From: Escherichia coli
GTDB lineage: Bacteria > Pseudomonadota > Gammaproteobacteria > Enterobacterales > Enterobacteriaceae
NCBI RefSeq assembly: GCF_044324875.1
Contig: NZ_CP172185.1
Direction: 5' to 3' (one strand)
DNA: 64,000 nt
Both the position numbers and the translations under genes were made by a program. The notes beneath the pieces were generated by a model. It saw nothing but the letters and a program-made list of their open reading frames with translations, did no database searches and was not told the DNA's origin. Positions within the stretch are counted from its first letter, which is position 1; every line of letters starts with the position of its first letter. Positions 17,194-29,328 of this stretch are shown piece by piece.

Positions 17194-19232
<2,039 letters not shown>

Positions 19233-19242
19233 GGACACGACA

Positions 19243-20745
19243 ATGACGATTTTTGATAATTATGAAGTGTGGTTTGTAATTGGCAGCCAGCATCTGTATG
19301 GCCCGGAAACCCTGCGTCAGGTCACCCAACATGCCGAGCACGTTGTTAATGCGCTGAATACGGAAGCGAAGCTGCCCTGCAAACTGGTGTTGAAACCGCT
19401 GGGCACCACGCCGGATGAAATCACCGCTATTTGCCGCGACGCGAATTACGACGATCGTTGCGCCGGCCTGGTGGTGTGGCTGCACACCTTCTCCCCGGCC
19501 AAAATGTGGATCAACGGCCTGACCATGCTCAACAAACCGTTGCTGCAATTCCACACCCAGTTTAACGCGGCGCTGCCGTGGGATAGCATCGATATGGACT
19601 TTATGAACCTGAACCAGACTGCACATGGCGGTCGCGAGTTCGGCTTCATTGGCGCGCGTATGCGTCAGCAACATGCCGTGGTTACCGGTCACTGGCAGGA
19701 TAAACAAGCCCATGAGCGTATCGGCTCCTGGATGCGTCAGGCGGTCTCTAAACAGGATACCCGTCATCTGAAAGTCTGCCGTTTTGGCGATAACATGCGT
19801 GAAGTGGCGGTCACCGATGGCGATAAAGTTGCCGCACAGATCAAGTTCGGTTTCTCCGTCAATACCTGGGCGGTTGGCGATCTGGTGCAGGTGGTGAACT
19901 CCATCAGCGACGGCGATGTTAACGCGCTGGTCGATGAGTATGAAAGCAGCTACACCATGACGCCTGCCACACAAATCCACGGCGAAAAACGACAGAACGT
20001 GCTGGAAGCGGCGCGTATTGAGCTGGGGATGAAGCGTTTCCTGGAACAAGGTGGCTTCCACGCGTTCACCACCACCTTTGAAGATTTGCACGGTCTGAAA
20101 CAGCTTCCGGGTCTGGCCGTACAGCGTCTGATGCAGCAGGGTTACGGCTTTGCGGGCGAAGGCGACTGGAAAACTGCCGCCCTGCTTCGCATCATGAAGG
20201 TGATGTCAACCGGTCTGCAGGGCGGCACCTCCTTTATGGAGGACTACACCTATCACTTCGAGAAAGGTAATGATCTGGTGCTCGGCTCCCATATGCTGGA
20301 AGTCTGCCCGTCGATCGCCGTAGAAGAGAAACCGATCCTCGACGTTCAGCACCTCGGTATTGGCGGTAAAGACGATCCTGCCCGCCTGATCTTCAACACT
20401 CAAACCGGTCCGGCCATTGTCGCCAGCTTGATTGATCTCGGCGATCGTTACCGTCTGCTGGTTAACTGCATCGACACTGTGAAAACACCGCACTCCCTGC
20501 CGAAACTGCCGGTGGCGAATGCGCTGTGGAAAGCGCAACCGGATCTGCCAACTGCTTCCGAAGCGTGGATCCTCGCTGGTGGCGCGCACCATACCGTTTT
20601 CAGCCATGCGCTGAACCTCAACGATATGCGCCAGTTCGCCGAGATGCACGACATTGAAATCACGGTGATTGATAACGACACCCGCCTGCCCGCGTTTAAA
20701 GACGCGCTGCGCTGGAACGAAGTGTATTACGGGTTTCGTCGCTAA
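19243..20745 (+). CDS. araA: L-arabinose isomerase
   Basis: 500 aa, [27 protein letters not shown]. Confidence 0.95.
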
Positions 20746-20749
20746 GTAG

Positions 20750-20880
20750 CCGCATCAGGTGTGTAACGCCTGATGCGACGCTGACGCGTCTTATCAGGCC
20801 TACACGCTGTGATTTTGTAGGCCGGATAAGCAAAGCGCATCCGGCATTGTTTTCCCCCTCGCCCCTTTGGGGAGAGGGCC
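20750..20880. repeat. REP/BIME units followed by a GC-rich box C-like palindrome
   Basis: gcctgatgcgacgctgacgcgtcttatcaggcctac, gtaggccggataag..gcatccggc, then ccctcgcccctttggggagagggccggggtgagggg. Confidence 0.65.
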
Positions 20881-20913
20881 GGGGTGAGGGGAAACGACCT
20901 CTCAGGAGTCAAC

Positions 20914-21609
20914 ATGTTAGAAGATCTCAAACGCCAGGTATTAGAAGCCAATTTGGCGCTGCCAAAACATAACCTGGTCACGCTCACATGGGGCAACGTC
21001 AGCGCCGTTGATCGCGAGCGCGGCGTCTTTGTGATCAAACCTTCCGGCGTCGATTACAACGTCATGACCGCTGACGATATGGTCGTGGTCAGCATCGAAA
21101 CCGGTGAAGTGGTTGAAGGAACGAAAAAGCCCTCCTCCGACACGCCAACTCACCGGCTGCTCTATCAGGCATTCCCGTCCATTGGCGGCATTGTGCATAC
21201 GCACTCGCGCCACGCCACCATCTGGGCGCAGGCGGGCCAGTCAATTCCGGCAACCGGTACCACCCACGCCGACTATTTCTACGGCACCATTCCCTGCACC
21301 CGCAAAATGACCGACGCAGAAATCAACGGCGAATATGAGTGGGAAACCGGTAACGTCATCGTCGAAACCTTCGAAAAACAGGGGATCGACGCAGCACAAA
21401 TGCCCGGCGTTCTGGTCCATTCTCACGGCCCGTTTGCATGGGGCAAAAATGCCGAAGATGCGGTGCACAACGCCATCGTGCTGGAAGAAGTCGCTTATAT
21501 GGGGATTTTCTGCCGCCAGCTTGCTCCGCAGTTACCGGATATGCAGCAAACGTTGCTGGATAAACATTATTTACGTAAGCATGGCGCAAAAGCCTATTAC
21601 GGGCAGTAA
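20914..21609 (+). CDS. araD: L-ribulose-5-phosphate 4-epimerase
   Basis: ORF 20884..21609 trimmed to [30 protein letters not shown] (231 aa). Confidence 0.93.
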
Positions 21610-21683: not shown

Positions 21684-24035
21684 GTGGCGCAGGCAGGTTT
21701 TATCTTAACCCGACACTGGCGGGACACCCCGCAAGGGACAGAGGTCTCCTTCTGGCTGGCGACGGACAACGGGCCGTTGCAGGTTACGCTTGCACCGCAA
21801 GAGTCCGTGGCGTTTATTCCCGCCGATCAGGTTCCCCGCGCTCAGCATATTTTGCAGGGTGAACAAGGCGTTCGCCTGACGCCGCTGGCGTTAAAAGATT
21901 TTCACCGCCAGCCGGTGTATGGCCTTTACTGTCGCGCCCATCGCCAGTTAATGAATTACGAAAAGCGCCTGCGTGAAGGTGGCGTTACCGTCTACGAGGC
22001 CGATGTGCGCCCGCCAGAACGCTATCTGATGGAGCGGTTTATCACCTCACCGGTGTGGGTCGAGGGTGATATGCGCAATGGCGCTATCGTTAATGCCCGT
22101 CTGAAACCGCATCCCGACTATCGTCCGCCGCTCAAGTGGGTTTCTATTGATATTGAAACCACCCGCCACGGTGAGCTGTACTGCATCGGCCTGGAAGGTT
22201 GCGGGCAGCGCATCGTTTATATGCTGGGGCCAGAGAATGGCGACGCCTCCGCGCTCGATTTCGAACTGGAATACGTCGCCAGCCGCCCGCAGCTACTGGA
22301 AAAACTCAACGCCTGGTTTGCCAACTACGATCCCGATGTGATCATCGGCTGGAACGTGGTGCAGTTCGATCTGCGAATGCTGCAAAAACATGCCGAGCGT
22401 TATCGTATTCCGCTGCGGCTGGGGCGCGATAACAGTGAGCTGGAGTGGCGCGAGCACGGCTTTAAAAACGGCGTCTTTTTTGCCCAGGCCAAAGGGCGGC
22501 TAATTATCGACGGTATCGAGGCGCTGAAATCCGCGTTCTGGAATTTCTCTTCATTCTCGCTGGAAACCGTCGCTCAGGAGTTATTAGGCGAAGGAAAATC
22601 TATCGATAACCCGTGGGATCGAGTGGACGAAATTGACCGCCGTTTCGCCGAAGATAAACCTGCGCTGGCAACTTATAACCTGAAAGATTGCGAACTGGTG
22701 ACGCAGATCTTCCACAAAACTGAAATCATGCCATTTTTACTCGAACGAGCGACGGTGAACGGTCTGCCGGTGGATCGGCACGGCGGTTCGGTGGCAGCGT
22801 TTGGTCATCTCTATTTTCCGCGAATGCATCGCGCTGGTTATGTCGCGCCTAATCTCGGCGAAGTGCCGCCACACGCCAGCCCTGGCGGCTATGTGATGGA
22901 TTCGCGGCCTGGGCTTTATGATTCGGTACTGGTGCTGGACTACAAAAGCCTGTACCCGTCGATCATCCGCACCTTTCTGATTGATCCCGTCGGGCTGGTG
23001 GAAGGCATGGCGCAGCCTGATCCAGAGCACAGCACCGAAGGTTTTCTCGACGCCTGGTTCTCGCGGGAGAAACATTGCCTGCCGGAGATTGTGACTAACA
23101 TCTGGCACGGGCGCGATGAAGCCAAACGTCAGGGTAATAAGCCGCTTTCGCAGGCGCTGAAGATCATTATGAATGCCTTTTATGGCGTGCTTGGCACCAC
23201 CGCCTGCCGCTTCTTCGATCCGCGCCTGGCGTCGTCGATCACCATGCGTGGTCATCAGATCATGCGGCAAACCAAAGCGTTGATTGAAGCGCAGGGCTAC
23301 GACGTGATCTACGGCGATACTGACTCAACGTTTGTCTGGCTGAAAGGTGCACATTCGGAAGAAGAGGCGGCGAAAATCGGTCGTGCACTGGTGCAGCACG
23401 TTAACGCCTGGTGGGCAGAAACGCTGCAAAAACAACGGCTGACCAGCGCACTGGAACTGGAGTATGAAACCCATTTCTGCCGTTTTCTGATGCCAACCAT
23501 TCGCGGAGCCGATACGGGCAGCAAAAAGCGCTACGCCGGGCTGATTCAGGAGGGTGATAAACAGCGGATGGTGTTTAAAGGGCTGGAAACCGTGCGCACC
23601 GACTGGACGCCGCTGGCCCAGCAGTTTCAGCAGGAGCTGTACCTGCGTATCTTCCGCAACGAGCCATATCAGGAGTACGTCCGCGAAACCATCGACAAAC
23701 TGATGGCGGGTGAACTGGATGCGCGGCTGGTTTACCGTAAACGCCTTCGCCGTCCGCTGAGCGAATATCAGCGTAATGTTCCGCCTCATGTACGCGCCGC
23801 TCGCCTTGCCGATGAAGAAAACCAAAAGCGCGGTCGCCCCTTGCAATATCAGAACCGCGGCACCATTAAGTACGTATGGACCACCAACGGCCCGGAGCCG
23901 CTGGACTACCAACGTTCACCACTGGATTACGAACACTATCTGACCCGCCAGCTACAACCCGTGGCGGAGGGAATACTCCCTTTTATTGAGGATAATTTTG
24001 CTACACTTATGACCGGGCAACTTGGGCTATTTTGA
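21684..24035 (+). CDS. polB: DNA polymerase II (B family)
   Basis: 783 aa; [15 protein letters not shown]; exonuclease and polymerase motifs (YGDTDS); start appears to be GTG. Confidence 0.93.
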
Positions 24036-27116: not shown

Positions 27117-27776
27117 ATGGGGATGGAAAACTACAATCCACCGCAGGAACCCTGGTTGGTTATCCTGTATCAGGATGACCATATTATGGTGGTCAACAAG
27201 CCGAGCGGTTTGTTGTCTGTGCCGGGTCGTCTGGAAGAGCACAAAGACAGCGTGATGACGCGCATTCAGCGTGATTATCCGCAGGCGGAATCGGTGCATC
27301 GTCTGGATATGGCTACCAGCGGCGTGATTGTAGTGGCGCTGACCAAAGCCGCGGAGCGGGAGTTAAAACGCCAGTTCCGCGAGCGCGAGCCGAAAAAGCA
27401 GTATGTGGCCCGCGTCTGGGGGCATCCATCCCCCGCAGAAGGTCTGGTGGATCTGCCGCTGATTTGCGACTGGCCAAACCGCCCGAAACAGAAAGTCTGT
27501 TACGAAACGGGTAAACCTGCGCAGACGGAGTATGAAGTGGTGGAGTATGCGGCGGATAACACGGCAAGAGTGGTGTTAAAACCGATTACCGGGCGTTCGC
27601 ATCAATTGCGTGTGCATATGCTGGCGCTGGGTCATCCGATTCTCGGCGATCGTTTTTATGCCTCACCAGAAGCGAGAGCGATGGCACCGCGTTTGTTACT
27701 ACATGCAGAGATGCTGACGATTACCCATCCGGCGTATGGCAATAGTATGACGTTTAAAGCGCCAGCGGATTTTTAA
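27117..27776 (+). CDS. rluA: 23S rRNA/tRNA pseudouridine synthase RluA
   Basis: 219 aa; HRLDMATSGV catalytic Asp motif. Confidence 0.92.
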   Translation: MGMENYNPPQEPWLVILYQDDHIMVVNKPSGLLSVPGRLEEHKDSVMTRIQRDYPQAESVHRLDMATSGVIVVALTKAAERELKRQFREREPKKQYVARVWGHPSPAEGLVDLPLICDWPNRPKQKVCYETGKPAQTEYEVVEYAADNTARVVLKPITGRSHQLRVHMLALGHPILGDRFYASPEARAMAPRLLLHAEMLTITHPAYGNSMTFKAPADF

Positions 27777-27797: not shown

Positions 27798-27860
27798 GTA
27801 GGCCGGAGAAGGCGTTCACGCCGCATCCGGCAATTTTGCGCCGATTGCCTGATGCGACGC
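27798..27860. repeat. REP/BIME unit and the left half of an interrupted palindromic unit
   Basis: ggtaggccggagaaggcgttcacgccgcatccggc then gcctgatgcgacgc directly abutting the IS left end. Confidence 0.6.
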
Positions 27861-27915
27861 GGGCTGAACTGCACCCCAAATGTTGGACATAATCTGACAT
27901 CTGAAGGTGCAGTTT

Positions 27916-28437
27916 ATGAAACATTCATTTGAAGTAAAACTTGCCGCTGTAAATCACTACCTGGCTGGTCATGCAGGCATCATTTCTACGGCAAAACTCT
28001 TTCAACTTTCTCACACCAGCCTCTCACACTGGATTAATCTTTTTCTTCTTCACGGTCCTCGGGCACTGGATTGCAGACACAAGCGTAGCTATTCTCCTGA
28101 AGATAAACTTTGCGTGGTTCTTTATGCTCTCGGGCATTCTGAGTCTCTACCCCGGGTAGCTGCCCGGTTTAACATTCCCAGCCACAACACGGTTAAAAAC
28201 TGGATAAAAGGCTACCGCAAATCTGGTAATGAGGCCTTTATCAGGCGCTGGAAGGAGAAAAGCATGACCCGTTCTGATGATACCCATGAAAACGAGGCAA
28301 ACATGACGCCGGAAGAGATGAAGAATGAGCTGCGTTATCTTCGCGCAGAAAATGCATATCTGAAAGCCATGCAGGAGCATCTCCTGGAAAAAAAGCGCCA
28401 GGAGCTGGAGAAAAAACGAAAGTCATCCGGAGCCTGA
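27916..28437 (+). CDS. IS3-family transposase OrfA (HTH DNA-binding)
   Basis: ORF 27907..28437; ATG at 27916 with gaagg SD; HTH region plus C-terminal leucine zipper-like LRYLRAENAYLKAMQEHL. Confidence 0.8.
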   Translation: MKHSFEVKLAAVNHYLAGHAGIISTAKLFQLSHTSLSHWINLFLLHGPRALDCRHKRSYSPEDKLCVVLYALGHSESLPRVAARFNIPSHNTVKNWIKGYRKSGNEAFIRRWKEKSMTRSDDTHENEANMTPEEMKNELRYLRAENAYLKAMQEHLLEKKRQELEKKRKSSGA

Positions 28438-28541
28438 GGTGCGGACACTGCCAGTCTGACCTGTTAAAGGCTGCAGGGCTGGCCAGAAGCACGCTGTACT
28501 ACCAGCTGTCACTGCAGAAGGCTAAGGACAAGTATGCTGAT

Positions 28542-29296
<755 letters not shown>

Positions 29297-29328
29297 CACC
29301 GCGTCTTATCAGGCCTACACGTTGAAAC

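Follow-up and report, generated by a model that had tools for sequence, protein, structure and literature searches.

A BIME-2-like REP unit and a BoxC element as probably independent neighbours in the araA-araD spacer of Escherichia coli: a sequence analysis

The window considered here, a stretch of 64,000 nucleotides of Escherichia coli DNA (contig NZ_CP172185.1, assembly GCF_044324875.1), carries araB, araA, araD and polB on the same strand. The genes come from an open reading frame list and their names from matching RefSeq records with identities of up to 100%; NZ_CP071263 is 100% identical. Sequence and reading frame list together place a spacer of 168 bp (20746-20913) between araA and araD, and within it lie a truncated REP arm, a z2-type REP, an inverted y-type REP and a GC-rich element. 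Downstream of the y REP the order is a T-run, the GC-rich element at 20856-20891, AAACGACCTCTC, the araD Shine-Dalgarno sequence and the ATG. An inverted-repeat finder recovered every REP arm and every BoxC arm of the spacer. The features of this part of the window are as follows.

17532-19232, + strand: araB.
19243-20745, + strand: araA, its TAA stop at 20743-20745 forming the left border of the spacer.
20749-20759, + strand: truncated REP arm GCCGCATCAGG, left over from the 3' half of an inverted REP.
20768-20803, + strand: z2-type REP (palindromic unit) GCCTGATGCGACGCTGACGCGTCTTATCAGGCCTAC, inverted repeat I2, with the CTAC end.
20804-20815, no strand: S-type (short) linker of 12 nt between the head-to-head REPs, read from the sequence.
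20816-20846, - strand: y-type REP, inverted, TGTAGGCCGGATAAGCAAAGCGCATCCGGCA, with (T)GTAG at its start, inverted repeat I1.
20847-20903, + strand: allele-specific insert of 57 nt replacing the CGA of BoxC-free alleles, made up of BoxC plus 9 flanking nt (CGACCTCTC), as delimited by an alignment that includes E. albertii.
20852-20894, + strand: extended stem, in which the TTT before the C-arm pairs with the AAA after G-arm 2 (inverted repeat I3; RNA and DNA folds).
20856-20891, + strand: BoxC / PIT / TMECO core ccctcgcccctttggggagagggccggggtgagggg, type B, with one mismatched triplet.
20856-20864, 20865-20869, 20870-20878, 20879-20881, 20882-20890 and 20891, + strand: parts of the core, namely C-arm, loop 1 (CTTTG), G-arm 1, loop 2 (CCG), G-arm 2 and a final G.
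20904-20908 and 20914-20916, + strand: araD Shine-Dalgarno sequence AGGAG and ATG; AGGAGTCAACATG is the same in every allele.
20914-21609, + strand: araD.
21684-24035, + strand: polB.

The left part of the spacer is made of REP sequences. Queried by blastn-short with sequences that we take to be the REP consensus, it gave a strong cluster at 20765-20848 (best E = 1.8e-18). Inverted repeat I1 joins 20790-20804 to 20816-20830 (93% complementary), while the truncated arm pairs with the left arm of the z2 REP (inverted repeat I4, 20751-20762 / 20766-20777, 92% complementary) and corresponds to the GCGCATCCGGCATTCAACGCC unit junction of the multi-copy alleles. Judged by its sequence, the z2 REP together with the inverted y REP is one BIME-2-like unit: z2 and inverted y, the short linker, the CTAC/GTAG feet and a strain-variable tandem copy number are all present, the last as an 85-bp unit repeated one to four times at the ara locus. 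It differs from the usual arrangement in that the 168-bp spacer of the window holds a single unit plus the truncated arm. Work on BIME-2 is reportedly also to be credited to Gilson/Bachellier. BIME-2 have been described as z2 and y units whose tandem number varies between strains (Ton-Hoang et al. 2012, PMC3333891), and REPs, in the account given there, protect upstream mRNA from 3' exonucleases and are sites of gyrase binding or cleavage. Besides chance hits, an Rfam scan of 20000-21600 (E ≤ 10) returned naRNA4 (RF02564), the best hits scoring 37.4 bits at 20727-20800 and 23.4 bits at 20820-20879. Membership of naRNA4 / REP325 was set aside, as both scores lie below the gathering score of 59.5; what is shared is a generic REP resemblance, the naRNA4 family having itself been built from REP pairs.

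The GC-rich element is, on the evidence of its sequence, a true BoxC / PIT / TMECO element of type B and as such already known. The description of BoxC is reportedly owed to Bergler/Bachellier in the 1990s, and the PIT element papers are said to be those of Hoyne and Maher from 2000 and 2002. The motif was first described as BoxC, then as the PIT element (Hoyne and Maher), and was renamed TMECO with the pattern 5'-CCCTCNCCC N3-6 GGGNGAGGG N3 GGGNGAGGG-3' (Holder et al. 2015, PMC4666352). This pattern has one exact match in the window, on the + strand at 20856-20890, and none in 100 dinucleotide-preserving shuffles; a search with the 23-nt core that allowed three mismatches likewise gave one match in the window and none in 100 shuffles. 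K-12 TMECO no. 3 (282,101-282,136, 'B mm'; Table 1 of PMC4666352) agrees with the 36-nt core at every position, and the identical sequence also appears in row 229 of Supplementary Table S8 of that paper, for E. coli 55989 at 67144-67109. The supplementary tables give coordinates without gene names; mapped onto the 55989 genome, this position falls between araD (66,391-67,086) and araA (67,255-68,757), and the ara copy of BoxC had thus already been catalogued. The exact pattern match, absent from all 100 shuffles, and the 36-nt identity to a catalogued copy together refute the idea of a chance GC-rich palindrome unrelated to BoxC. Rfam contains no BoxC family.

The element is a three-armed C/G/G motif in which both G-arms are complementary to the C-arm, an arrangement that gives a hairpin together with a third strand. 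Set against CCCTCTCCC, which is the complement of G-arm 1, the C-arm CCCTCGCCC has a single differing position, and when G-arm 1 (GGGAGAGGG) is set against the reversed form (GGGAGTGGG) of G-arm 2 (GGGTGAGGG), nine of nine positions are allowed triplets; read directly, the triplets between these mirror-related arms are G.G, A.A and T.A only. Loop 2 sets the subtype, TTA denoting type A and CCG type B, and 'mm' stands for one mismatched triplet (PMC4666352); loop 2 here is CCG (20879-20881), hence type B. The ara element accordingly shares with its family the consensus, the CCG loop 2, the mismatched triplet, the intergenic position and the presence/absence polymorphism between strains. It differs in that K-12, the reference strain for most BoxC work, has no ara copy, and in that it lies inside an operon and directly against a REP, unlike the seven other BoxC loci examined.

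The spacer is structurally variable between strains. Alleles without BoxC measure 114 bp with one BIME unit (for example ST131), 199 bp with two, 284 bp with three (K-12) and 369 bp with four, the 85-bp unit thus occurring in one to four tandem copies across Escherichia. The BoxC allele measures 168 bp, one BIME unit plus BoxC, and the element always stands beside a single unit. It was found in 1,560-1,565 of 5,426 complete E. coli genomes (about 29%) and is structurally uniform across some 1,560 of them, a uniformity that fits poorly, at the ara site, with the notion that BoxC destabilises its surroundings. Sixty records were also sampled at even steps down the match ranking, 59 of them chromosomes. 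Seventeen of these carry the BoxC allele at identical length, seven have two units, six have one and in a single chromosome the match was a joined three-unit one; some 27 matched partially, as does K-12 with its three units. By the example of the partial match in K-12, we take most of these 27 or so to be three-unit alleles.

The BoxC allele occurs on diverged backgrounds, represented by the window, O111:H8 and O145. Its O145 version (RM8988-C1) has two substitutions within BoxC, CTTTG to CTTCG and CCG to TCG; both are loop changes that leave the 27 arm positions untouched, which on these tiny numbers hints at structural constraint. The BIME part of the same RM8988-C1 spacer has variants in common with E. 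albertii (CGTTCCGA).

For the polarity of the change, species-representative genomes were scanned with a degenerate pattern for the araA C-terminus; the scan returned three Escherichia loci, sufficient to polarise the insertion, with Salmonella, Citrobacter and other genera lying outside its coverage. E. albertii has one unit, Escherichia sp. MOD1-EC7003 three and the E. coli-labelled SCPM-O-B-8794 (a GTDB species representative) four tandem units in a 369-bp spacer, the longest allele seen. All three lack BoxC, and their spacers share the end GGCACGAAGGAGTCAAC / GGCACGAAGGAG. Given that these three other lineages are BoxC-free, we read BoxC as a derived insertion within E. coli. The net gain of the insertion is 54 bp, near the 56-bp length quoted for BoxC in the literature. 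The insert follows directly on the final base of the y REP, and the comparison of filled with empty sites reveals no duplicated flank and hence no target-site duplication. Across six aligned sequences, BoxC-bearing and BoxC-free alike, the columns of the araD Shine-Dalgarno sequence and ATG do not vary.

Between BoxC and the Shine-Dalgarno sequence the allele-specific insert contains the hexamer CCTCTC (20898-20903). This hexamer can pair with GAGAGG in G-arm 1 and is not common to other type-B copies; it may be what is left of an inverted partner element, or a product of chance. A pseudoknot between G-arm 1 and this hexamer was set aside because the connecting loop of 6 nt seems too short for an 11-bp stem and because CCTCTC is absent from other copies.

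Signals that would give the spacer a role in transcription were searched for on both strands of 20600-21000, where neither promoter-like (sigma-70) nor intrinsic-terminator-like sites were found. The hairpin has TTTT ahead of it and AAACGA behind it, an order opposite to that of a terminator read on either strand, and a Rho-independent terminator was rejected since no U-tract directly follows the GC-rich hairpin. As RNA, the C-arm is predicted to pair with G-arm 2 in a hairpin of -28.5 kcal/mol that ends just before the araD Shine-Dalgarno sequence, which in the predicted RNA fold is not sequestered beyond a 3-bp stem. The z-score of the fold against shuffles is about -1.4 (-0.95 to -1.5 for the BoxC segment alone; RNA and DNA, both strands); with so weak a z-score the predicted stability is mostly compositional and is no evidence in itself.

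Published experiments on other copies of the family bear on the same question. Single-stranded 'B mm' oligonucleotides form an intrastrand triplex in vitro, as seen by CD and NMR, with a Tm of 70 °C, and the fold given for the identical 36-mer is a C-arm:G-arm 1 hairpin with G-arm 2 in its groove as a purine-motif third strand (PMC4666352). The triplex went undetected in duplex DNA, and when the identical K-12 copy was footprinted with DMS in vivo, no protection was seen (PMC4666352). As summarised in the same paper, Hoyne and Maher saw neither promoter nor terminator activity, and the activities of RNA polymerase and reverse transcriptase, as well as conjugation, were unaffected; DNA polymerase was blocked in vitro, and in vivo no effect was seen. 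The sole association reported by Holder et al. is a higher local sequence variability (PMC4666352).

Elsewhere in the species BoxC is a dispersed family. Searching with the 63-nt segment by blastn gave a median of 19 and a maximum of 36 places per complete E. coli genome. Copies were fetched from lldD-trmL, cpsG-wcaJ, ugpB-ugpA, ygfF-gcvP, cca-bacA, downstream of alx, yagA-yagE and xynR-argF, and all of them lie between genes, in unrelated contexts and in both orientations. TMECO counts range from 1-2 in B2-type strains such as CFT073 to 23 in K-12 and 26-30 in IAI1, 55989 and W (Holder supplement, PMC4666352). Across nine aligned type-B copies a conserved block TTTTCyCCCTCGCCCC...GGGAGAGGGCCGGGGTGAGGG can be recognised, and the upstream T-run and downstream A-run are common to other type-B copies. 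Copies of type B and type A often occur in inverted pairs (ygfF-gcvP, cca-bacA and downstream of alx; also lldD-trmL and ugpB-ugpA), a pairing already reported by Hoyne et al. and Holder et al. (PMC4666352). In the convergent pairs at ygfF-gcvP, cca-bacA and alx the two copies stand apart by a conserved linker of some 27 nt, such as aaatattcgcgccagtgccggcctgtt. Several type-B copies have a loose GCACCG...TTTTC left flank, and of the 19 nt on the left side of the identical K-12 yagA-yagE copy (GCACCGAGCCATCTTTTCC; 283-301 of the fetched locus), 12 agree with window positions 20837-20855 (GCATCCGGCATTGTTTTCC), which comprise the REP end and the T-run; this likeness could be microhomology relevant to the arrival of the element, or chance. 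No REP was found at the seven other BoxC-bearing loci examined. The juxtaposition of REP and BoxC at ara is therefore best regarded as coincidental, with no composite unit, and the targeting of REPs by BoxC as a property of the family was rejected on the same ground.

An earlier sequence-only reading of the window had seen in this spacer two REP-type units followed by an imperfect GC-rich palindrome resembling box C, together forming a composite repeat that ended at 20883. The two units are there, as the z2 REP at 20768-20803 and the inverted y REP at 20816-20846, and the likeness to box C is borne out by the exact TMECO match and the 36-nt identity to K-12 no. 3. An absence of similarity to box C copies elsewhere in the genome, which had been named as the outcome that would speak against the assignment, is not what the median of 19 related places per genome indicates. 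The comparison of the spacer across strains that had been proposed yielded BoxC in about 29% of genomes and BIME of one to four units. Other points need amendment. An end at 20883 cuts off the last 8-11 nt, the core ending at 20891 and the extended stem at 20894; the supposed imperfect palindrome is a three-armed motif. The term 'composite repeat' overstates the case, as seven other BoxC loci have no REP close by and BoxC-free alleles of this spacer occur in most E. coli and in other Escherichia.

We consider it very probable that the ara spacer holds two independent, already described non-coding repeat families side by side, with BoxC as a near-neutral passenger. The first would be a BIME-2-type unit, composed of z2 REP, short linker and inverted y REP and preceded by the truncated arm; a BoxC of type B would then have gained a once-empty site next to it, as a derived insertion of about 54 bp net. 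BoxC would be tolerated within the operon because it neither terminates transcription, having no U-tract terminator, nor disturbs the araD initiation region, whose Shine-Dalgarno sequence and ATG are untouched. Its contribution to the araBAD mRNA may amount to a stable hairpin of about -28 kcal/mol, as predicted, and to this only. The REPs probably play their usual parts, shielding the upstream araBA message from 3' exonucleases and providing binding sites for gyrase and Pol I. Structural polymorphism of the spacer, and not regulation, would thus be the main consequence of both repeats. We infer the neutrality from the missing signals and from the published experiments at other BoxC copies.

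Set against this near-neutral reading is the proposal that the BoxC hairpin, situated 7-10 nt upstream of the araD Shine-Dalgarno sequence, acts as a lineage-specific cis-regulatory RNA which alters araD translation or the decay of araBA versus araD mRNA, either by stabilising a 5' end left by cleavage or by adding a further barrier to 3' exonucleases. The predicted hairpin of -28.5 kcal/mol just ahead of the Shine-Dalgarno sequence and the O145 arms, unchanged while both loops changed, are consistent with such a role, as is the stabilisation of upstream mRNA by REP-type hairpins in the account of PMC3333891. However, about 71% of E. coli and the three other Escherichia lineages are without BoxC and have the same Shine-Dalgarno sequence and ATG, the motif is scattered over unrelated contexts in both orientations, the published tests were without promoter, terminator or RNA-polymerase effect (PMC4666352), and the Shine-Dalgarno sequence is sequestered by a 3-bp stem at most; we regard a regulatory RNA as very unlikely. 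Still harder to credit is a BoxC insertion that serves as a natural cis-regulatory polymorphism of araBAD, shifting AraD versus AraA/AraB output or the stability of mRNA segments on the non-template strand or as an RNA hairpin just ahead of the araD ribosome-binding site, and that might also freeze the BIME at one copy; a related reading has the position at the REP edge reveal how BoxC spreads. If true, it would mean a regulatory effect in the roughly 29% of E. coli that carry BoxC. The G-rich half of the element (GGGG AGA GGG CC GGGG TGA GGGG, 20869-20891) comprises four G-runs of at least three with loops of 3, 2 and 3 nt, and might be pictured as a three-tetrad G-quadruplex in non-template DNA or mRNA, a structure that Holder et al. 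held possible in principle and that their CD spectra were unable to exclude (PMC4666352). NMR of the full oligonucleotide, on the other hand, gave 18 sharp imino signals and was read as triplex and not G-quadruplex (PMC4666352), and the adjacent, fully complementary C-arm competes strongly in both DNA and RNA folds, so that we give the quadruplex next to no credence.

The mobility of the element is a separate matter. BoxC might have come to the edge of a REP by transposition, as a MITE-like or REPIN-like miniature mobile element, the adjacency then reflecting a target preference like that of IS1397. The presence/absence polymorphism with a BoxC-free ancestral state, the strongly lineage-dependent copy number (Holder supplement, PMC4666352) and the abutment on the last base of the y REP would all suit such an origin. 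Yet the insertion replaced 3 nt and left no target-site duplication, the element has no terminal inverted repeats other than its internal arms, REPs are missing near all seven further BoxC loci examined, and Holder et al. reported no association with transposons, phages or plasmids (PMC4666352); transposition into a REP target is in our estimation unlikely.

The value of the result lies chiefly in annotation. The 'palindrome' becomes a BoxC/TMECO of type B and the REP part a BIME-2 unit at a locus of variable copy number; the significance beyond this is small. A by-product is a clean pair of filled and empty sites with the ancestral state fixed by outgroups, of modest value for the mechanism by which BoxC spreads. 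It also constitutes a natural pair of operon alleles suited to the long-standing question of whether BoxC does anything.

The remaining statements of the sequence-only reading concern the rest of the window, in which it had listed further REP clusters, a dense BIME landscape and a REP unit near 27860 used as an IS target. Clusters at 15362-15444, 49647-49729 and 54104-54186 are genuine, with best E values of 2e-8 to 1e-13 (blastn-short, REP queries). The fourth, at 63105-63165, proved to be a weak, atypical REP-like palindrome, tgccggatgctgcctacgatttcgtaggcaatctgtaggccgcatccggca, with REP-like outer arms, GCCTAC/GTAGGC inside and an E value of about 0.08 against the standard REP queries. The landscape is typical and not dense: with six or seven clusters over its 64 kb, or roughly one every 10 kb, the window is near the genome average, K-12 having, as stated in PMC4550694, 355 annotated REP elements in 4.64 Mb or about one per 13 kb. 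The IS target is confirmed, with IS1397 lying inside the loop of a z2 REP.

27865-29296: IS1397, 1,432 bp, IS3 family, with TG...CA ends and two open reading frames at 27907-28437 and 28542-29264.

Insertion of IS1397 into REP loops was reportedly described by Clement et al. in 1999. The element is known to insert specifically into REP units (PMC3333891), and insertion into the REP loop is treated by Tobes and Pareja (2006, PMC1525189); the copy in the window conforms to this, splitting the z2 REP in its loop. The halves of that REP lie at 27798-27860 and 29300-29319, and no clean target-site duplication was seen by eye at the insertion (left flank GGGC, right flank CACC). The event lies 7 kb from the ara spacer and is separate from and unrelated to BoxC. 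The copy is 100% identical to annotated IS1397 copies, and 1,707 of 5,426 E. coli genomes have at least 80% of IS1397; in the window it sits downstream of an open reading frame of 219 aa at 27117-27776.
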